Both the position numbers and the translations under genes were made by a program. The notes beneath the pieces are model-generated. The model ran no database searches, had not been told where the DNA came from, and worked only from the letters and a program-made list of their open reading frames with translations. Positions 20,317 to 52,755 of a stretch of 64,000 nucleotides of DNA are shown here, piece after piece. This stretch comes from Neisseriaceae bacterium (GTDB lineage: Bacteria; Pseudomonadota; Gammaproteobacteria; Burkholderiales; UBA11063), in assembly GCA_046336365.1 (NCBI GenBank), contig JBKDHQ010000163.1, positions 2,316 to 66,315 on the forward strand. The letters are read 5' to 3'. Within the stretch, counting starts at the first letter, position 1, and the number at the start of each line of letters is the position of its first letter.

Positions 20317-20541
20317 ATGAAACGTAGTAGTAAAACAGCAATGCCAATATGGTTAACTGAATCTGGAGAAAGAGTTTCTTGTATTGAAAAAATAAAAGTT
20401 ATGCAACAAAATTTGGAAGAATTGCAACAAATGGCACAAGATACTTATGAGGATGGTATTTTGATGGGGATTGCGCAACGTCAATTAAAAGATTTTCTTG
20501 TACAATTAATGGATGAATTATATAATCCTTATGAAAAATAG
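20317..20541 (+). CDS. Hypothetical small protein
   Basis: 74-aa frame tightly packed between the P60 peptidase gene (4-nt gap) and lolC (11-nt gap). No motif recognised. Confidence 0.4.
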   Translation: MKRSSKTAMPIWLTESGERVSCIEKIKVMQQNLEELQQMAQDTYEDGILMGIAQRQLKDFLVQLMDELYNPYEK

Positions 20542-20552
20542 GTAAAGATTTT

Positions 20553-21800
20553 ATGTTTAATAAATTTGAGTGGATGGTTGGGCGTCGATATTTACGTGCT
20601 AAGCAAAAAAATAGTTTTGTTTCATTTATTTCTTTAGTTTCTATTATTGGTATTGCGCTTGGTGTAGCAGCATTAATTACAGTTTTATCTGTAATGAATG
20701 GTTTTCAAAACGAAATTAGGAAGAAAATTGTTGGAGTTACTGCTCATATGCAAATAATGGATGCATCTGGAAAATTGCCTAATTGGCAAACAATTTCAAA
20801 TCAAGTTCAATCTAATAAGCAAGTTTTAGCTACAGCTCCTTATGTTGATGGACAGGCCCTTGTATCTTTTGATAATAATGTAAGTGGTGTTGTAGTTCGT
20901 GGTATTAGCTCAAAACTTGAAAAGAGTGTTGAAAATATAGATGCTAATATGGTTGAAGGAAGCTATAATTCATTAATTTCTGGAAAATACAATATTTTAA
21001 TCGGAGAGGATTTAGCACGTAACCTTGGTGCAACAATCGGCGATAAGATTATGCTGATTACTCCAGATGGTCAGGTAACTCCAGCAGGTATGATACCAAG
21101 AATTAAAAGATTTACCATTAGCGGAATATTTAATACGCATATGTATGAATATGATAGCGGTTTGGTTTTAATTGATTTACATGATGCACAAGTATTATTC
21201 AAGATGGGTGATAATGTTAGTGGTGTTAGATTAAAAGTTAATGATATTATGAATACGCAGGAAGTAAAACGCCAACTAGGCAAAATTTTACCTGATAATT
21301 TATTAGTAAGCGATTGGATTGATCAGCATAAAAATTATTTTTCTGCAGTAGATTTAGAGAAGAAGATGATGTTTGTTATATTAACCTTAATTGTTGCAGT
21401 TGCCGCATTTAACTTAGTCTCAACATTAGTGATGACTGTGAATGATAAAAAGTCAGATATTGCTATTCTTAGGACTATGGGTGCTAGTAAAAGAAACATT
21501 ATGAAAATATTTATATTGCAAGGTGGGATGTCTGGAATTATTGGTACAGTGTCGGGAACTATATTGGGGCTTCTTTTGGCTACATATATAGGAAACATTG
21601 TTCATTTTATTGAGCTAATAACTGGAGCTAAATTGATTAACGGTGATGTATATTTAATTGATTATCTACCTTCTAAAATATTTTTAAGTGATGTCATGAC
21701 TATATTTATTGTATCAATATTATTGAGTATTTTGGCAACTATCTATCCAAGTAAAAAAGCTGCAGATACAAACCCAGCCGAGGCACTTCGCTATGAGTAA
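20553..21800 (+). CDS. lolC: Lipoprotein-releasing system permease (LolC/E family; single copy, LolF-like)
   Basis: 'MVGRRYLRAK...FISFIS', MacB-like periplasmic domain, and C-terminal FtsX domain ending 'YPS.KAA...PAEALRYE'. It overlaps lolD by 8 nt. Confidence 0.85.
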   Translation: MFNKFEWMVGRRYLRAKQKNSFVSFISLVSIIGIALGVAALITVLSVMNGFQNEIRKKIVGVTAHMQIMDASGKLPNWQTISNQVQSNKQVLATAPYVDGQALVSFDNNVSGVVVRGISSKLEKSVENIDANMVEGSYNSLISGKYNILIGEDLARNLGATIGDKIMLITPDGQVTPAGMIPRIKRFTISGIFNTHMYEYDSGLVLIDLHDAQVLFKMGDNVSGVRLKVNDIMNTQEVKRQLGKILPDNLLVSDWIDQHKNYFSAVDLEKKMMFVILTLIVAVAAFNLVSTLVMTVNDKKSDIAILRTMGASKRNIMKIFILQGGMSGIIGTVSGTILGLLLATYIGNIVHFIELITGAKLINGDVYLIDYLPSKIFLSDVMTIFIVSILLSILATIYPSKKAADTNPAEALRYE

Positions 21801-22485
21801 TAATTATATATTAGACTGCCAAAATATCTGCAAAACTTATAAACAAGCAGATAATGATTTAAATGTTTTAAATGATGTCAATTTATCGGTATCCATGGGG
21901 GAGACTGTAAGTATTATTGGTAGTTCAGGTAGTGGTAAAAGTACCTTACTCCATATATTAGCTGGATTAGACATAGCAACCTCAGGGGAGGTTAGATTAG
22001 ATAGTACTTTAGTTCATAGCTTATCTGATATCGAATTATGTAAATTACGCAATAAGAATTTAGGGTTTATTTATCAATTTCATCATTTATTACCAGAATT
22101 TACAGCATTGGAGAATATCTTAATGCCGCTTATCATTGGTGGTTCTAATATTAATAAAGAAAAGAGAGAAAAAGCATTAGATATATTAGGGCGACTTAAC
22201 TTATCTAATAGGCATACCCATTATCCCTCACAATTATCTGGTGGCGAAAGGCAACGTGTGGCAATCGCACGAGCTGTTATAAATGAGCCACGTTTAGTAT
22301 TTGCCGATGAACCTACCGGTAATTTAGATAATCAAACTAGTAATCAGGTTCTAGAAATATTCTTTAAACTTCAAGAAGACCTCAAAACAAGTTTAGTAAT
22401 AGTAACTCATGATTTAGATATTGCAGCTAAAGCACAGACACAGTATCGTCTCCATAATAGCCAATTAAGTAGAGTTTCTAGCTAA
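21793..22485 (+). CDS. lolD: Lipoprotein-releasing system ATP-binding protein
   Basis: Walker A 'GSSGSGKST', '[18 protein letters not shown]', signature '[14 protein letters not shown]' and Walker B '[11 protein letters not shown]'. Confidence 0.9.
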
Positions 22486-22811
22486 AATAATTAAAAGTAT
22501 TGGTTATTTGTTTTAAGTAAATTTTAATATAAATAATTGGTGTGCTTATGAAGATTAAGAGCTTCAAAATTACTAATCTGTTATGTATAAATAATAATGA
22601 GTTTGTCCTAAAATTTTGATTGTCTAAATTTTTAATAAAAAACTCCCCAAAATTATATTCTACTTTAAATCATTTGTATGTAAAATATTACATTAATTAA
22701 TAATTCAGTTTTTGCTAATCAAGATTTCTATCATATATTAAAATCTCAGTTAAAGTAAGAGTTAATATATTTATATTTAATAAAAACGTATAATATTTAA
22801 GGACATTTACT

Positions 22812-24296
22812 ATGAATAATCCTACTAGAATAAATTCAAAATTCCATCAACCAACAGGTACTGATACAAATAACCCAAAAAGAACCATTGTCATTGATAA
22901 TGGTTTAAAGTGGTTTAGTGCTAGTGGGCAAAGGTTAACTCAAAGCAATGGAAATGGTATACATAAATTTCGAGATGGGGCTATATATGAGGGCGAGTAT
23001 CATGGATATAAAATGCATGGGAAGGGTAAACAAACATTAGCAAATGGAGATATATTCGAAGGTGAATTTAACAGAGGTAACCTTGCTAACGGAAAATATA
23101 CATTTAAAAATAATGAAATAGGTATTCTCAGTTATGAAGGTGGTTTTTTAGACCTTCGAATGCATGGGAAGGGGAAAGTAACATTTGCAAATGGGGTTAT
23201 ACTCGAAGGAGAGTTTAACAGAGGTGTTTTGTCTAATGGAAAACATATATTTAATAAGCAAGAAAATGTTATTACCTATTGGGACTTTGTAAACTATAGC
23301 CCAGATACTATAATTACAATTGTTTATGCTAATGGCAGTAAATATATAGGTCCGGTTAAACAAATGCTTCCAGATAGTCAAAAAGGAATGTTGATTTGTA
23401 ATAATGATAATGAAGAAGAGGCACAGGAAAATGTGAAAAATACCATTATTTATCAAGGTGTTTTTAAAGATGGAAAGTTTGTTGAAGGCATAGCATTATA
23501 TCGTCCTATAAATTATAGATTTGAAGGTAACTTTATTAATGGAATGCGTAGTAAAGGAAAGCTTATTAATAATAAGGATGGTACAGTGATTTTTACTGGC
23601 ACTTGGCAAAATGATTGCAAGCACTTTGGGAAGATGATGTTACCTGATATAGGTAAATATAAAGGAAAATTTGAAAATGGCCAACCGAATGGACATGGTA
23701 GAATAGGCTATATCAATGGTGATGTGTATGAGGGCGAGTTTAAAGATGGCAAACCGAATGGACATGGAAAAATGTTGTATTTCAATGATGATAAATTATT
23801 TATAGGAGAGTTTAAAGATGCTAAACTTAATGGTATTGCAACTAAAATAGATTTTCAAAATGAAACATGCCTTAAGGGGGAATTTAATAATGGTGAGTTA
23901 CAAATAAATTATGAAAAAATAGCTGTTGATGTTATTATTAGCCAGGAACTTAAAAAAATGGAGAGCATGATATATAATTATGATAATCATATAATTGAAA
24001 TACCAGAAGAATTGTCTGATCCCATATCTTATGAAACTCTTGAAGAAAATAATTCATGGTGTGCTTTACCTAGTGGGATAACAAGTGATGAAAGTAATAT
24101 GGTTTATGATATATATACAATAGATAGTTTAAATGCTCTGATAGAGGATAGTACCTCAAAGGTTATCCCGCTAAAAAACCCAACAACTAGGTTGGAGTTT
24201 GAAGAAGTTCAAGTTTTAAAAGGATTTAGTTTTCTAGAATGGTTAATGCTTGCGCAATTGAAACGGGAAGCTAAGAAAATAGCTAACTTTTTGTAG
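22812..24296 (+). CDS. MORN-repeat protein with C-terminal U-box-like domain (candidate E3 ubiquitin ligase effector)
   Basis: Many 'Y.GEF..G...G.G' MORN units, for example 'NGDVYEGEFKDGKPNGHGK'. Residues ~396-478 'IPEELSDPISYETLEE..ALPSGIT..YD..IDSLNALIED..KNPTTRLEF' match the U-box consensus by eye. Confidence 0.65.
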   Translation: MNNPTRINSKFHQPTGTDTNNPKRTIVIDNGLKWFSASGQRLTQSNGNGIHKFRDGAIYEGEYHGYKMHGKGKQTLANGDIFEGEFNRGNLANGKYTFKNNEIGILSYEGGFLDLRMHGKGKVTFANGVILEGEFNRGVLSNGKHIFNKQENVITYWDFVNYSPDTIITIVYANGSKYIGPVKQMLPDSQKGMLICNNDNEEEAQENVKNTIIYQGVFKDGKFVEGIALYRPINYRFEGNFINGMRSKGKLINNKDGTVIFTGTWQNDCKHFGKMMLPDIGKYKGKFENGQPNGHGRIGYINGDVYEGEFKDGKPNGHGKMLYFNDDKLFIGEFKDAKLNGIATKIDFQNETCLKGEFNNGELQINYEKIAVDVIISQELKKMESMIYNYDNHIIEIPEELSDPISYETLEENNSWCALPSGITSDESNMVYDIYTIDSLNALIEDSTSKVIPLKNPTTRLEFEEVQVLKGFSFLEWLMLAQLKREAKKIANFL

Positions 24297-24319
24297 TTAG
24301 GAATTTGCTAACTATTTTT
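24294..24319 (+). terminator. Putative rho-independent terminator
   Basis: 'tagttag' / 'ctaacta' stem with a 7-nt loop, followed by 'ttttt'. The stem starts at the stop codon. Confidence 0.4.
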
Positions 24320-24345
24320 AGTTTTAGTAAAATTTATTCTGAGAA

Positions 24346-24684
24346 TTAATATTTTTTAATCCCATCAACATAGAACCAGGCACCAGGAGTTCTGAATGAC
24401 CATACTGCAGTGGCCCCAATTATGAATATACCTATTGTTAAAATAATCCAGAACATTTTTGAAGATAATTGTTTTTTTTGTTTTCTGCCAAATGTATATT
24501 TATAGGTGCTAACATATAAAATAAAGCCAAAGCCTATAATAAATCCGAAAATTTGTGCTTCTCTTGTAAATAAACTAACATGGCTCATAGCGCCTGGTAT
24601 ATCCTTAACTGTAGCCCAACATAAAGTTATATATAAAATTAAATAAACTGCTATACATAGCTTTTTAAAATAAGTATTTTTCAA
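24346..24684 (-). CDS. Hypothetical small membrane protein
   Basis: 112 aa with three hydrophobic segments. No motif recognised. Confidence 0.45.
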   Translation of the reverse strand: MKNTYFKKLCIAVYLILYITLCWATVKDIPGAMSHVSLFTREAQIFGFIIGFGFILYVSTYKYTFGRKQKKQLSSKMFWIILTIGIFIIGATAVWSFRTPGAWFYVDGIKKY

Positions 24685-24913
24685 AACCTGATTCCTTCAA
24701 AAATAATTTTTGCATTGTCAAACCTAACTATTTGGTTGAATACGTCGAAGATATGAATAAATAGTTAATTTTGAATAAGGGAATAATATAAGTTCTATAT
24801 CGAATTAAATTTATTAATTTGTTATAAATTAAAGAAATATCTTACCAATAACTTATTCTATTTCATACTAGAATAAATTTCAAAGGCAAAATTAAGGTAA
24901 AATTTTATTTTTA

Positions 24914-25504
24914 TTATAGTATATTATTGATTTTTTGAAGTAGGTTTTGGATTGCAAGATAGCGGTGGCTAAGTTTATTTTTTTCTGCTGGGTCTAATTC
25001 TGCAACTGTTTTGTTAAATTGTGGAAGTAGTAGATGGGGGTCGTAGCCAAATCCATTGTTTCCTCTGGGATGATCAATAATTTGGCCTTTTAATATTCCA
25101 TCTGATATTATTGGCTGTGGGTCATGATAATGGCGAATTAATACTAATGTACAGCAAAAATATGCGCTTTTGTCGGTAAAAGGCTCTAATTCTTCGACTA
25201 ATTTTCTACAGTTATTTTTACTATTGGTAGGAATTCCTGCAAATCTTGCAGAATAAACTCCAGGTCTACCTCCTAATGCGTTAGCACATATTCCAGAGTC
25301 ATCAGCTAATACTGGTAGATTCGTAAATTTGCTACAGTGTCGCGCTTTATGTAGTGCATTTTCGATAAATGTAAAATATGGTTCATCAATTTCAGTGACG
25401 TTAAATTTAGATTGGGGGATTATCTCAAAAGCAGAATTTTTAAATATTGCATTAAATTCATCAAGTTTCCCTTGATTATTAGAAGCAAGTACAATCTGTT
25501 TCAT
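24914..25504 (-). CDS. rdgB: Non-canonical purine NTP pyrophosphatase (RdgB/HAM1)
   Basis: 'IVLASNNQGKL.EF', 'ADDSGI...LGG.PGVYSAR' and 'RG.NGFGYDP'. Confidence 0.9.
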   Translation of the reverse strand: MKQIVLASNNQGKLDEFNAIFKNSAFEIIPQSKFNVTEIDEPYFTFIENALHKARHCSKFTNLPVLADDSGICANALGGRPGVYSARFAGIPTNSKNNCRKLVEELEPFTDKSAYFCCTLVLIRHYHDPQPIISDGILKGQIIDHPRGNNGFGYDPHLLLPQFNKTVAELDPAEKNKLSHRYLAIQNLLQKINNIL

Positions 25505-25525
25505 AAATATTCCACACTTACTTTA

Positions 25526-27601
25526 CTACCTAACACGCATACCAGGTTTTGCACCAGTATGTGGCTCTAATATATAAATTCCGCTGTTTTTATCTTCAAA
25601 GCTTGCTGCTAAGACCATTCCTTCACTAATGCCAAATTTCATCTTTCTTGGAGCAAGGTTTGCTACCATCACAGTATGTTTGCCAATTAAGGTCTCAGGT
25701 GAATAAACTGCCTTGATCCCGGCAAATACATTACGTGTTTCGCTACCAATATCAAGAGTTAATTGAATTAGCTTATCGGCTCCATCAACATGTTTTGCAT
25801 CAATGATTTTAGCAATACGTAAATCTAGTTTACTAAAGTCATCAATATTGATTGTATTTGCGATAGGTTCATATATTGACTCAGATTGTTTATCTTGTAT
25901 AGGTATATCTTGACCTTGTTGGGTGTTACTTCCATCGTTATTTGCTTCGAATAGTTTTTCTATCATGGTGTTATCAATCCTTTTAATTAAGTGAGTGTAC
26001 TGGTTAATTTTATGATCAAATAGAAGTGTTTCCAAATCATTCCAGATTAATGGCTTAATATTTAAATATGTCTCAATATCAGTAGCTAATTTTGGTGTTA
26101 TCGGTTTTAAATAGATGGTTAATATCCTAAATGCATTAATCAGTATGGTACATATTTCATGTAAGTGGTTAAGTTTATCCTTATCTTTAGCTAATATCCA
26201 TGGTTTTGTTTCATCAACATAAATATTGACTTGATCTACCAATAGCATAATTGAGCGGATAGCTTTTGCAAATTCACGATTCTGGTAGTATGATGAGATT
26301 TCAAATTGCGCTGCTTTGATTTGCACTAGTAAAGTGTTATCGTTTATATTGCTTGTTAGTTGATTATCAAAAAATTTTGTCAGAAAGCTTGATGTTCTTG
26401 CTGCAATATTTACAAACTTGCCAACTAATTCAGAATTTACTCGTAAGACAAAATCATCTACCGAAAAATCAACATCCTCAATTTTATTAGTCAATTTACT
26501 AGCTAAATAATAACGAAATAAATTAGTTGGTATTCCAGATTTTACCAATTGGCTTGCATTAATAAATGTTGCACGTGATTTAGACATTTTTTGTCCATTA
26601 ATAGTCAAAAATCCGTGAGCAAAAATATTGCTAGGTATATTATAGCCTGAAAAATTAAGTACAGCAGGCCAAAATAAAGCATGAAAGTATTGAATGTCTT
26701 TACCAATAAAATGGCAAATTTCAGTGTCAGGGTTATTCCATAATTGTTGAAAATTCAAATTATTTATTTTGCAGTAATTGAGTAAGCTACCCATGTATCC
26801 AATTGGAGCATCAAGCCATACATAAAAATATTTATCATGAGTCCCAGGTATCAGAAAGCCTAAGTAAGGCCCATCTCGTGAAATATCCCAGTCTTGCAAT
26901 CCAGATGTTAACCATTCCCGCATCTTATTAATTGATTCTTGTTGCATACGATCATTACTATTTAGCCATTCCTCTAAAAATTCTTTACATTCACTTAAGC
27001 GGAAAAAGTAATGTTCAGATTCTTTTATAATTGGCTTACTGCCAGATATTACTGAATATGGATCAACTAAATCAATAGGCAGATAGGTTGCCCCACAAAC
27101 TTCACAATTATCACCATATTGATCAACTGCACTGCATTTAGGACAAATTCCTTTAACATATCTGTCCGGTAAAAACATTCCCTTTTCTTTATCAAATAGC
27201 TGTTTAATTGTTTTAGTGCAGATCTTATTGTTTTGTTTTAACTTATTAAATATATCATAAACAAAATGTTTATTTTCTTCAGAGTCTGTTGTATAATAGT
27301 TATCAAAATTAATATCAAAAGCTTTTGAATCTTCAAGATGTCTTTTAAAAATATTATTAGTTAGTTCTTTTGGTGTGATTTTTAATTGTTCAGCTTTTAA
27401 CATTATAGGTGTACCGTGTGCATCATCAGCACAGATAAAGTGGCAACTATGACCTTGCATTTTTTGAAAGCGTACCCAAATGTCAGCTTGGGTTTGTTCT
27501 AGCATATGACCGAGATGTAAGTCTGCATTAGCATACGGTAGTGCAGTTGTTACAATAATAGTTCTTTTATTGTTCTTATTACTCACTATTAAGACTCTCA
27601 A
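25526..27601 (-). CDS. metG: Methionine--tRNA ligase (with C-terminal tRNA-binding domain)
   Basis: '[13 protein letters not shown]' (HIGH), zinc knuckle 'CPKCS...CEVCG', 'KMSKS' and a C-terminal EMAP/Trbp111-like domain. The track start is TTG, and a GTG at 27586 is an alternative. Confidence 0.95.
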
Positions 27602-49573: not shown

Positions 49574-50064
49574 GATTTTGTTTTAGGTAACCTTACTCAA
49601 TTTAAAATAAAACTAAGAATAATTAAGTTAGTAATTCTACTATAATTTTTGTCAAATGTCAATAGGTAGTCGTTTTTCAATTTTAGGTTATAAATAATTT
49701 TCTTATGGTTAAGTATAATTTTTGGATTAAATCAATTATAATGTTAAAGTGACCGGTATACTCTACAAGCTTATTTTGAGATAAATTAATACTATGAATT
49801 AGTCTTAAGATATCTCGCCCACTCAATCATGAAAAGCAGGGCAAACCAGGGAATTTCAGAACTGCTAATTGGAATTCCCATTTCATTTTAAAGTGTGCCC
49901 TTAATAATCAACTCAGGAAATCTTTACATGTTGCAGAATAATGTAATTTATTAGATTGTTATCTTTGATTACCAAAATTTGGTATGCTAAAGTGTGGTTT
50001 CGGATTAATAAATACTCTATAATTGTAAGTATCAAATATCATTTAAGTGTTTGAGGGAAATAAA

Positions 50065-52755
50065 ATGAAATTATTTATAAGATACTCACTCTCACAGATA
50101 TATTGCTTAATTGTTGTTATGCTGTTTGCTTGTAATACTGGTAATCTTGGCACAAATAATAGTAATTTGATTAGTAGTACAGTACCATTATCGGCTTCGA
50201 AAATAACTATAGATAATGTCGGAACTGTGCCGGTATTTGCCGATACTGCTACATCAAGTATAATATATATACATAATAATAGTAATGAGGTAATCAATAA
50301 TATAGACTATTCAATAAGCAATAACCTAGGAATAAATAGTTTTAGTATCGATGTAAATGGTTGTGATTCTATAGCTGCAAATTCAAGATGCGCATTAAAA
50401 TTTACTACTCCAGTATTGTCTGCAACTAATGTACAAGGCTCATCTGTTTTGAAAGCGAGCTATAATGGTAATAGTTTTAGCCAAATAATTAATTATAATC
50501 AAATATTGGACAATTCTGCATCAGGTATTATAGTAAGTTCTGGTGTAAACATTAATAATTATGGAAATCAGTCAGGGTATGCTATGGTATATGCTTATGC
50601 AGGTTCAGGAAAAAGTTATTTATTAAAAAAGATTGAAATAAGTAGTTCTCAAGTAAATATAATGGATAATTATATAGATAAAAATGTGCAAATTAACCAA
50701 ATTCTACCAATAGAAATTAGTAGCAATAGCTCAAATAATGTAGCAGCCAAATTAATAATTAATTCTACAATTCAAACTAATGTATATTCAACTAATGTAA
50801 GTATTGCTGTAATTCCATCTAATAATGGAGCAATTTTAATTAGTGGAACATCACCAATAATAGATACCAAAGTATCACTATTAGGAAGTTTTCCTATAAT
50901 GAATGCTGGAAACATGATGGCAACATTAGATCCCATAACTTATCCAGAAGGCATAGAATCAGCAAGTGGTCCTAATTCATGTGGTACAACATTAGAACCT
51001 TATACGAGTTGTAATATTTATTTTAAAGTACCATATTATGGAGGTAATGGGAATATTATCATTCCATATAATGGGATATCATTGACTCAAGCTATTGTTT
51101 GGTATAATAGCGGAGGTACTGGTGCATTGCTTGCAATGAGTTCAAGCGCAAGTCAAATTAATATTCCGTATGGGACTACAATTTTAACAATAACTGTTAG
51201 AGTCAAAAATATTGGAGCATATCCACTAAATAATGTTACACCTAGTTCAGTCACAATAAGCGGTAATGCAAATACCACGATAACAAATAATTTATGTAAT
51301 GGCACATTGAAGATTGAATCAAGTTGCTCTTATCAGGTTGATGTCACTGATACAGTTATTGAATCTAATAAACAAATTAATTTAGGTATTAGCGGTACCT
51401 ACAATAATGGTAGTAGTCAATTATATAGCAGGATTTTACCTATACAGTATAATAGCTTATCATTATGGATATGGATGAGTGGGGAGAGTGATATAAATCA
51501 ATATGGTGTTTATGGTATTAAAGGAATAGCATCTCCATCAAATATTCCTGGGGGTAGGGAAGGGGCTATTTCATGGACAGATAGTTTAGGAAATTTATGG
51601 TTGTTTGGTGGGCGTGGTTACGTTGGAACTCAAGTTGCGTTTTTTAATGACTTATGGAAATATGAAATATCTACAAATACTTGGACCTGGATGAGCGGTG
51701 AGAGTAAAATAAATCCGTTTGGTGATTATGGTACTAAGGGAGTTGCTTCCAGTACAAATATGCCTGGAAGTAGGGATGGTTCTGTTTCGTGGACAGATGA
51801 GTCTGGTAACTTATGGTTATTTGGGGGTTATGGATATAGTGCAACTCAAATTTCTTTTTTGAATGATTTATGGAAATATGATATATCTACAAACACTTGG
51901 ACCTGGATGAGCGGTGAAAGTCAAGTAAACCAATTCGGTAATTATGGTACTAAGGGTGTAGCTTCTAGTACAAATATGCCTGGAAGTAGGAATAGATCTG
52001 CTTCATGGACAGATGAGTCTGGTAATTTTTGGTTATTTGGTGGCTATGGATATAGTGCAAATCAAATTTCTTTTTTGAATGATTTATGGAAATATGATAT
52101 ATATACAAATACTTGGACATGGGTAAGTGGTGGAAATCAAATAAACCAATTTGGTAATTATGGTATTAAGGGCGTAGCTTCTAGTACAAATATGCCTGGA
52201 AGTAGAGATTCATTAGTTTCATGGAAAGATGGGTCAGGAAATTTATGGATATTCGGTGGCTATGGATATGGTGCAACCCAAATTGGTTTTTTGAATGATG
52301 GATGGAAATATGATATATCTACAAATACTTGGACATGGATGAGCGGTGAAAGTCAAGTAAACCAATTTGGTGATTATGGTACTAAGGGTATAGTTTCTGT
52401 TACAAATATGCCTGGCTCTAGGTCAAATACTATTTCGTGGAAGGATAGTTCAGGAAATTTATGGATATTTGGTGGCTATGGATATGGTGCAACTGAAAGT
52501 GGGTCTTTAAATGACTTATGGAAATATGAGATATCTACAAATACTTGGACCTGGATGAATGATGAAAATGATATAAACCAGTTTGGTACTTATAATGCTA
52601 AGGGTATAGCTTCTGATATAAATATGCCTGGAGGTAGGGATAGATCTGTTTCGTGGACAGATAAGTTTGGTAATTTATGGTTATTTGGTGGTAATGGATA
52701 TGATGCTTCTCAAAATGGTTCTTTAAATGACTTATGGAAATATTGCTATTATTAA
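50065..52755 (+). CDS. Large lipoprotein: N-terminal Cys-pair Ig-like modules + C-terminal six-bladed Kelch beta-propeller
   Basis: Lipobox 'MLFAC' after the ATG at 50065 (GAGGG SD). Three 'C-x10-13-C-x-[YF]' modules. Six 72-aa units 'W.DxxGNLWLFGGYGY....LNDLWKYDISTNTWTW'. Confidence 0.75.
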   Translation: MKLFIRYSLSQIYCLIVVMLFACNTGNLGTNNSNLISSTVPLSASKITIDNVGTVPVFADTATSSIIYIHNNSNEVINNIDYSISNNLGINSFSIDVNGCDSIAANSRCALKFTTPVLSATNVQGSSVLKASYNGNSFSQIINYNQILDNSASGIIVSSGVNINNYGNQSGYAMVYAYAGSGKSYLLKKIEISSSQVNIMDNYIDKNVQINQILPIEISSNSSNNVAAKLIINSTIQTNVYSTNVSIAVIPSNNGAILISGTSPIIDTKVSLLGSFPIMNAGNMMATLDPITYPEGIESASGPNSCGTTLEPYTSCNIYFKVPYYGGNGNIIIPYNGISLTQAIVWYNSGGTGALLAMSSSASQINIPYGTTILTITVRVKNIGAYPLNNVTPSSVTISGNANTTITNNLCNGTLKIESSCSYQVDVTDTVIESNKQINLGISGTYNNGSSQLYSRILPIQYNSLSLWIWMSGESDINQYGVYGIKGIASPSNIPGGREGAISWTDSLGNLWLFGGRGYVGTQVAFFNDLWKYEISTNTWTWMSGESKINPFGDYGTKGVASSTNMPGSRDGSVSWTDESGNLWLFGGYGYSATQISFLNDLWKYDISTNTWTWMSGESQVNQFGNYGTKGVASSTNMPGSRNRSASWTDESGNFWLFGGYGYSANQISFLNDLWKYDIYTNTWTWVSGGNQINQFGNYGIKGVASSTNMPGSRDSLVSWKDGSGNLWIFGGYGYGATQIGFLNDGWKYDISTNTWTWMSGESQVNQFGDYGTKGIVSVTNMPGSRSNTISWKDSSGNLWIFGGYGYGATESGSLNDLWKYEISTNTWTWMNDENDINQFGTYNAKGIASDINMPGGRDRSVSWTDKFGNLWLFGGNGYDASQNGSLNDLWKYCYY
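51466..52755 (+). repeat. Six tandem in-frame 216-bp repeats (Kelch blades)
   Basis: The landmark 'tgg-ac[ca]-tgg' recurs at 51466, 51682, 51898, 52114, 52330 and 52546, exactly 216 bp apart. Units 2-5 are highly similar at the DNA level. Confidence 0.9.

Follow-up and report, generated by a model that had tools for sequence, protein, structure and literature searches.

A MORN-repeat protein with a candidate divergent U-box in an uncultured Neisseriaceae bacterium

Does a bacterial gene standing among housekeeping genes encode a ubiquitin ligase meant for a eukaryotic cell? The question is raised by one gene in a 64,000-nt stretch of the genome of an uncultured Neisseriaceae bacterium (GenBank assembly GCA_046336365.1, contig JBKDHQ010000163.1, positions 2,316 to 66,315 of the forward strand; hereafter the window). 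The gene lies at 22812..24296 (+) and encodes a protein of 494 residues, in which an N-terminal array of MORN repeats is followed by a small C-terminal domain. A first-pass annotation, made from the letters alone, had called this domain a U-box and the protein a candidate translocated E3 ubiquitin ligase; the position of the open reading frame (ORF) and all four peptides that it quoted were confirmed in the sequence. Our analysis makes it plausible that the protein is a hijacker of the ubiquitin system of a eukaryotic host. Among the key tools of intracellular pathogens are bacterial mimics of U-box and RING domains. AvrPtoB and GobX are bacterial U-box E3 mimics, and to our knowledge nearly all such U-box/RING mimics come from a few cultured genera (Legionella, enterohaemorrhagic Escherichia coli (EHEC), Pseudomonas syringae) and from amoeba symbionts. 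U-box E3 mimics already described include RavN and others (PMC5819833) and the U-box proteins of Amoebophilus (PMC11323580).

Evidence for a U-box-like domain

Relatives of the C-terminal domain were taken from an exhaustive phmmer search, in which residues 366-494 were compared with 1.84 billion representative proteins. This search returned one other protein, P0121 (E=3e-5). Word-indexed searching was unreliable for this fragment: with the C-terminal fragment or the two-sequence alignment it returned nothing, not even the parent protein, which is a limitation of the index. No further relatives of the domain alignment were found in GTDB genomes, JGI metagenomes or IMG/VR. P0121 is a paralog of 458 residues encoded in the same metagenome-assembled genome (MAG; contig JBKDKP010000046.1, 4828-6204), between a nucleoside transporter gene and queE. 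The two proteins have only their last ~100 residues in common, at 32-34% identity. The N-terminal ~350 residues of P0121, which include a Q/N/S-rich linker, are unrelated to the MORN array and gave no match in Pfam, NCBIfam or PADLOC and no significant one in the PDB. Residues 24-155 of P0121 resemble the PP2C-like pseudophosphatase TAB1 at chance level only (E=0.47), and a TAB1/PP2C identity of this N-terminus was dismissed. As far as these sequence searches reach, the C-terminal module is a lineage-restricted orphan that stands behind two different N-terminal modules.

The domain and its paralog were aligned with each other (alignment A1) and compared by hhalign with an alignment of seven eukaryotic U-boxes (A2: CHIP, PUB14, yeast UFD2, UBE4B, UBE4A, and yeast and human PRP19), whose sequences were validated against the PDB by near-identity bit scores. 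A1 and A2 aligned with a probability of 82.4% (E=1e-5, score 33.2) over 56 columns (template 1-56 of 77), which run from loop 1 through the hairpin and the helix to loop 2. None of 300 column shuffles of A1 reached this score (mean 10.5, sd 2.0, maximum 17.6), which stands ~11 standard deviations above them, and the reversed alignment scored 10.7. Taken singly, the two sequences scored 27.9 and 24.0 against the U-box profile, each above the shuffles.

The structurally proven U-box of the NleG effectors served as a positive control, in a five-member alignment of sequences from E. coli Sakai prophage Sp9 and PDB 5VGC/2KKX. In hhalign it reached 72.6% (E=3.2e-5) against A2, and the Pfam U-box model (PF04564) did not match it at all. 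Because NleG scores similarly against the same U-box profile, the new domain appears, by profile, as good a U-box as this proven bacterial one. Compared with the NleG alignment itself, A1 gave a probability of 19% (E=1.2e-3, score 24.4; shuffle maximum 17.8), a signal that comes mainly from the paralog (26.1), whereas the MORN protein alone does not match NleG (11.7). In Pfam, the sole match of the paralog was T3SS_NleG (PF06416; 12.1-12.3 bits vs a cut-off of 25.3, E=0.16-0.19), and no match to PF06416 was found for the MORN protein. PF04564 was the only family at E<=10 for its 115-residue C-terminus (E=0.13, 12.9 bits) and the best match for the 87-residue domain (E=0.07, 13.7 bits), both matches spanning model positions 1-31 only. 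Since the domain falls below the thresholds of both U-box and NleG, it is not filed in either Pfam family, and probably represents a new divergent U-box-like family that works like them.

The residues on which a U-box depends for its partner could be placed by the hhalign alignment. The aligned CHIP positions are those which we take, from established CHIP mutant data, to be E2-contact residues. CHIP I235 aligns with I405 (in 'DPIS') and F237 with Y407; H260 aligns with L443, a position that is Leu or Met in the paralog pair; P269 and R272 align with P457 and R460, both in 'NPTTR'. I405, P457 and R460 are unchanged in the paralog. The first-pass annotation had sought the E2-contact Ile and Pro in 'IPEEL' (I397/P398), and these contacts are instead I405 and P457. 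The U-box-like string itself was located at residues 397-463 (nt 24000-24200). Positions invariant between the paralogs are D-P-I in loop 1, WCA.P.G in the hairpin, S-L in the helix, P..R..F in loop 2 and the C-terminal 'VL.G..FLEWL'. Two insertions set the domain apart from CHIP, one of 10 residues within the beta-hairpin and one of 6 residues ahead of loop 2. By this alignment the E2-docking residues are conserved, namely the loop 1 Ile, the helix hydrophobic residue, and the loop 2 Pro and Arg. In all active RING/U-box domains, Ile/Leu/Pro residues of loop 1, helix A and loop 2 form the E2-docking surface (PMC5819833). The last 110 residues hold one Cys and one His, as expected from the earlier remark that a Cys/His zinc-ligand pattern is missing; because of this composition, zinc binding by the domain is excluded on sequence grounds.

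AlphaFold2 (AF2), run with the two-sequence alignment, gave a 110-residue model with a predicted local distance difference test score (pLDDT) of 67.3 and a predicted template modelling score of 0.58. Residues 416-424 and 430-436 are modelled as a hairpin, 437-445 as a helix, 455-459 as a short strand at loop 2 and 465-493 as a long helix. In this model the order of elements is that of a U-box, in register with the hhalign alignment. A single-sequence AF2 model was unusable (pLDDT 41.7), and the Foldseek run on it was meaningless.

Several results weigh against a U-box. The Pfam U-box scores of 12.9-13.7 bits are under the gathering cut-off of 21.4 bits. When both insertions were deleted, in an artificial sequence made only to see if the similarity is collinear, the match extended over model positions 1-55 with 18.1 bits (E=0.003), still below 21.4. 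A hidden Markov model of the two sequences found no U-box in the PDB, and only a chance match to Lem3 (E=2.3). The AF2 model is mediocre at pLDDT 67, and its loop 1 is below 50 and unmodelled. Foldseek, with either of the two models (medium or low in confidence), retrieved neither a U-box nor a RING (its best matches had E=2.3 in PDB and 0.23 in BFVD), so that the structural search proposed by the first-pass annotation gave no match. These results would suit an ordinary cytoplasmic MORN protein with an unrelated small alpha/beta module for oligomerisation or partner binding at its C-terminus, the resemblance to U-boxes being a motif-level coincidence. Bacterial MORN arrays are commonly fused to many different domains, and the DNA read shows no host or secretion context, both of which favour such a protein. 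However, a coincidence would have to produce an hhalign score ~11 standard deviations over column shuffles and level with a proven bacterial U-box, and to do so in two paralogs that align to the U-box profile independently. It would also have to place the paralog-conserved positions, among them the Ile, Pro and Arg of the E2-contact surface, on loop 1, loop 2 and the helix of a U-box, and to give a predicted order of secondary structure that matches one. We therefore consider this alternative unlikely, though it deserves to be taken seriously, and a U-box fold the probable state of the C-terminal domain. The earlier U-box call is partly supported: it stands on the hhalign result (82%, 0/300 shuffles), the E2-contact residues and the missing zinc ligands, and falls short at the Pfam threshold and in the structural match.

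MORN array and authenticity of the gene

The N-terminal part of the protein raises no such doubt. It matches PF02493 (MORN) with E=1.5e-19 and 69.1 bits, against a gathering cut-off of 22.5, and the MORN1 chains of apicomplexans and trypanosomes in the PDB with E=3e-20. Hence, of the two Pfam families that had been suggested for the protein, MORN passed its cut-off and U-box did not. Eleven clear units were enumerated as tandem repeats of ~23 residues with the pattern Y.G.[FW]..G...G.G, and the protein is a member of PF02493. The near-continuous array described earlier is real, but it is divided into two blocks around a degenerate stretch (Table 1), and the second block holds the best Pfam and PDB matches. 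Although MORN lipid binding is assumed, it is disputed, and dimerisation and protein contacts are often mediated by MORN repeats (PMC7725318).

A homolog search with the full-length protein found 715 homologs at E<=1e-3, which match through the MORN region only. Many of these are bacterial and carry caspase, TIR, C13 peptidase, trypsin or GIY-YIG domains, and a U-box was found in none of the top 120. Since MORN repeats are widespread in bacteria, they are by themselves no sign of eukaryotic mimicry.

No signal peptide or transmembrane segment was found anywhere in the protein (Kyte-Doolittle maximum of 0.88 in a 19-residue window). The first ~30 residues are rich in N, T, P and S and hold one acidic residue. 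Such a start would be compatible with a signal of the type III secretion system (T3SS), and the missing Sec signal and transmembrane segment would be compatible with export by T3SS, by type IV or type VI secretion systems (T4SS, T6SS), or by an extracellular contractile injection system. Neither feature is diagnostic.

Table 1. Features of the gene, its flanks and the encoded protein (window coordinates)
Feature	Residues	Position	Strand	Basis or remark
Shine-Dalgarno-like AAGGA, 8 nt before ATG		22799..22803	+	read from sequence
MORN/U-box-like coding sequence	494 and stop	22812..24296	+	NCBI MFO0319403.1, annotated 'hypothetical protein'
N-terminal polar region, N/T/P/S-rich	1-58	22812..22985	+	hydropathy: no signal peptide or transmembrane segment
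MORN block 1, four units from residues 59, 82, 108, 131	59-153	22986..23270	+	Pfam, PDB, unit enumeration
Degenerate stretch, one decayed MORN-like unit at residue 178	154-213	23271..23450	+	unit enumeration
MORN block 2, seven units from residues 214, 237, 261, 283, 306, 330, 354	214-376	23451..23939	+	
Linker, predicted helical; K-x-E-S-x-I common with paralog	377-395	23940..23996	+	
U-box-like domain (probable)	396-480	23997..24251	+	hhalign vs seven U-boxes, shuffle control; Pfam below threshold
Loop 1 equivalent, IPEELSDPISYET	397-409	24000..24038	+	hhalign alignment; pLDDT <50 in model
Beta-hairpin, 'WCALPSGIT...MVYDIYT'	416-436	24057..24119	+	AF2 strands 32-40 and 46-52 of 110-residue model
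Central helix, 'IDSLNALIE'	437-445	24120..24146	+	alignment and AF2 model
Loop 2 equivalent, 'KNPTTRLEF'	455-463	24174..24200	+	P, R, F invariant with paralog
Long C-terminal helix; 'VL.G..FLEWL' kept in paralog	465-493	24204..24290	+	AF2 model, alignment
AU-rich 8-bp hairpin overlapping stop codon, then T5		24293..24319	+	hairpin itself 24293-24314

The ATG start and TAG stop of the gene were verified directly in the sequence. An identical 494-residue protein is present in the NCBI MAG 'Neisseriaceae bacterium' (GCA_046344915.1), and the gene reads the same in an NCBI MAG contig and in three Logan assemblies made independently. Because of this identity, an assembly artefact was ruled out. The GC content of the gene (0.319) and that of its third codon positions (GC3, 0.224) are the same as in the adjoining housekeeping genes, and recent horizontal transfer was rejected on this ground. 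A megablast search of a plasmid collection with nt 20500-26500 gave no match. From the GC and GC3 values and the identity in independent assemblies it follows that this is a genuine resident bacterial gene, neither a contaminant nor a recent import. The converse, that eukaryotic or viral DNA was mis-assembled or mis-binned into a bacterial contig, might be suggested by the domain types, which are best known from eukaryotes, and by a probable protist protein with MORN repeats and a RING (P0056) among the homologs. It is effectively refuted by context: the gene stands on one contig between lolCD and rdgB-metG-mrp-lptD, carries a Shine-Dalgarno-like motif, recurs unchanged in four independent assemblies and is indistinguishable from its neighbours in composition.

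A spacer of 326 bp with 18% GC precedes the gene, with lolC/lolD on its far side. The spacer that follows is only 49 bp long and leads to a convergent ORF for a 112-residue membrane protein, beyond which the gene order is rdgB, metG, mrp, lptD. It is reasonable to regard the gene as monocistronic, as had been claimed, with a long AT-rich spacer upstream and not downstream. A terminator of its own had also been claimed, and a hairpin followed by T5 indeed exists at the stop codon. Its energy of -10 kcal/mol (z=-1.1) is indistinguishable from that of shuffled sequence, and it was not called by a terminator scan. The terminator reading, perhaps of an element shared with the convergent gene, is possible and statistically unsupported, and it was not adopted.

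Proposed mechanism and genomic surroundings

We infer that the organism has a eukaryotic host into whose cells the protein is exported, and that the C-terminal domain folds as a U-box, binds an E2 and is active as a ligase. The parts would combine as follows. The MORN array of about eleven repeats would serve for targeting or for holding the substrate, by contact with a partner protein or with the surface of a membrane, and might form dimers. The zinc-free, highly divergent U-box at the C-terminus would dock a ubiquitin-charged E2 of the host via Ile405 in loop 1, Leu443 in the central helix, and Pro457 and Arg460 in loop 2. Ubiquitin would then be directed onto the MORN-bound target or onto the protein itself. 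The paralog would aim the same ligase module at another target. All of this would require export into the eukaryotic cell. Taken whole, this host-directed scenario has, in our estimation, a little better than an even chance of being correct.

The genomic surroundings count against such a scenario. The portion of the MAG that was read, comprising the 64-kb window and the 9-kb contig of the paralog, holds no secretion system and no eukaryote-like neighbour, nor any genes for E1, E2, ubiquitin-like (Ubl) or JAB proteins. All neighbours of both paralogs are housekeeping genes, and the window is ordinary chromosome, with lol, lptD/surA/pdxA, metG, ilv/leu, murB, ruvA, pantothenate kinase and cell-envelope glycosyltransferase genes. 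Because ilv/leu biosynthesis is retained, the organism is not obviously a reduced endosymbiont. In addition, MORN repeats are common in bacteria, including free-living ones in the homolog list.

Alternatively, the domain could have a U-box-like fold and yet not act as a host-directed ligase. It might be a pseudo-ligase that blocks E2, or it might act inside the bacterium with a prokaryotic Ubl conjugation or conflict system, the MORN array being a sensor or adaptor. The partner domains named above for many bacterial MORN homologs are typical of conflict systems, neither a secretion signal in the protein nor a machinery in the DNA read was found, and the 10-residue hairpin insertion and the Leu or Met at the CHIP H260 position would suit a domain that is not an active ligase. 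However, PADLOC contains no defence model that matches the protein, its paralog or the neighbouring gene, and genes for E1, E2, Ubl or JAB proteins were not found nearby. We know of no U-box E3 in the bacterial Ubl systems of the Bil/Bub type, which counts against an intrabacterial role. Moreover, the E2-docking residues in both paralogs argue for productive E2 binding. A non-ligase or intrabacterial function thus seems rather improbable to us. A defence-system reading was dropped, as PADLOC and NCBIfam gave no matches and the gene is monocistronic among lol, rdgB and metG.

The lineage itself was placed by methionyl-tRNA synthetase (MetRS). The nearest relatives, with 63-70% identity, are MAGs of uncultured organisms from freshwater lakes that bear the label Neisseriaceae or Burkholderiales. 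This nearest clade (L006-L011) is low in GC (33-38%); in the next tier, at ~55% identity, the one MAG measured (L012) has 59% GC. The relatives keep the mrp-metG-rdgB synteny, and the genes beyond rdgB are unrelated and differ in each genome. The MORN/U-box-like gene was not found beside rdgB-metG in the MetRS-nearest relatives. Synteny with these relatives gives no information on the origin of the gene. Beyond rdgB, relative L006 carries a toxin-antitoxin pair of the VapC/AbrB type.

Other genes of the window are recorded here as observations in their own right. A protein of 902 residues (50047-52755, +) carries a signal of the lipoprotein type (…LFAC), and its C-terminal half contains about six Kelch repeats in tandem (Pfam E=1e-36); its N-terminal ~450 residues have no family match, and it may be a surface beta-propeller lipoprotein. 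A protein of 163 residues (6136-6627, +) matches Pfam Host_attach (PF10116, 'required for attachment to host cells') and baeRF family 12. Four ORFs of 160-428 residues have no Pfam match, at E<=1e-3 for 4595-5881 (-) and at 1e-5 for 58454-58939 (-), 60411-60893 (-) and 60958-61674 (-); the first of these, of 428 residues, has no NCBIfam or PADLOC match either. They could be further lineage-specific proteins. At 3096-4532 (+) lies an unremarkable full-length SelO protein adenylyltransferase (Pfam E=2e-125). Rfam models found one tRNA only over the window.

Comparison with known U-box and RING systems

We found no report of a MORN+U-box fusion in the literature searched, and the top 120 MORN homologs contain none; the first-pass annotation likewise knew of none, and we regard the architecture as new. 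A MORN array joined to an E2-recruiting domain nevertheless exists elsewhere. P0056, a protein of 417 residues on a 1.6-kb ENA metagenome scaffold (112-1365) and probably from a protist, likewise combines an N-terminal MORN array with a C-terminal E2-recruiting cross-brace domain. Its domain is, in contrast, a true RING-H2 (C3H2C3), which binds zinc and scores above threshold with the Pfam RING models; outside the MORN repeats, no similarity between P0056 and the C-terminal domain studied here could be detected.

If the two paralogs do found a family of bacterial U-box E3 ligases with exchangeable targeting modules, an uncultured, low-GC, freshwater betaproteobacterial clade lives in or on protists and manipulates their ubiquitin system. 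Confirmation would provide a first molecular hint of interaction with eukaryotic cells for this lineage, together with a new sequence family that is invisible to standard domain models, the new MORN+U-box architecture and a module swapping like that of NleG. More generally, the case illustrates how profile-profile comparison can bring cryptic ubiquitin-ligase domains to light when no more than two paralogs are available.

Both U-box proteins and MORN repeats are reported among the eukaryotic-like proteins of amoeba symbionts (PMC11323580). Symbionts such as 'Candidatus Amoebophilus asiaticus' resemble the present case in that eukaryotic-like domains of the ubiquitin system (U-box/F-box) are found in environmental, protist-associated bacteria. 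They differ in belonging to another phylum and in having an established host association; moreover, their U-boxes are found by standard Pfam models, and no MORN+U-box fusion has been reported for them.

Legionella LubX, GobX, RavN and other cryptic U-boxes are also bacterial E3-ligase mimics whose genes are dispersed singletons. Several U-box-like effectors of Legionella are undetectable by primary sequence and keep the Ile/Leu/Pro surface for E2 docking (PMC5819833). The Legionella proteins differ in that a proven intracellular pathogen exports them through its Dot/Icm T4SS. No MORN array is reported for them in the literature searched, and phmmer with residues 366-494 gave no sequence relationship to them.

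With the eukaryotic U-boxes (CHIP/STUB1, PUB14, UFD2/UBE4, PRP19) the domain is collinear: it has a loop 1 of the form '[IV]P..[LF]..PI[ST]', a hairpin ending in 'PSG', a central helix, a loop 2 of the form 'P.TR..[LF]' and a C-terminal helix, and no zinc ligands. In contrast to them, 'NNSW' replaces the 'DPV' motif, the protein is bacterial, and the fusion partner is a MORN array instead of TPR, ARM, WD40 or the Ufd2 core.

The T3SS effectors of the NleG family (EHEC, Citrobacter, Salmonella; PF06416; PDB 2KKX, 5VGC) differ in retaining the Cys residues of 'CPITL' and in being prophage-borne in enterobacteria with a known T3SS, whereas here chromosomal singletons stand among housekeeping genes of a betaproteobacterium in which no secretion system is known. 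There are also likenesses. Both are bacterial, zinc-free and divergent C-terminal U-boxes, proven in NleG and probable here, and both are equally far from the eukaryotic U-box profile. The hairpin is lengthened in each of them, and loop 2 reads 'HPLSREPF' in NleG, 'HPISRNSF' in the paralog and 'NPTTRLEF' in the MORN protein. NleG proteins form a family of paralogs with variable N-terminal substrate-binding domains, and the paralog pair follows this pattern, its C-terminal module being conserved behind variable N-termini. Tentatively, and with somewhat less than even confidence, we suggest that the pair belongs to a new lineage-restricted family of bacterial U-box E3 ligases with exchangeable targeting modules, in which the MORN array would place the ligase on a membrane or cytoskeletal partner of the host. 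Because the U-box-like module recurs in the paralog after an N-terminus of unrelated sequence, the organism appears, by analogy with NleG, to have a small ligase family whose members differ by an exchange of targeting modules.

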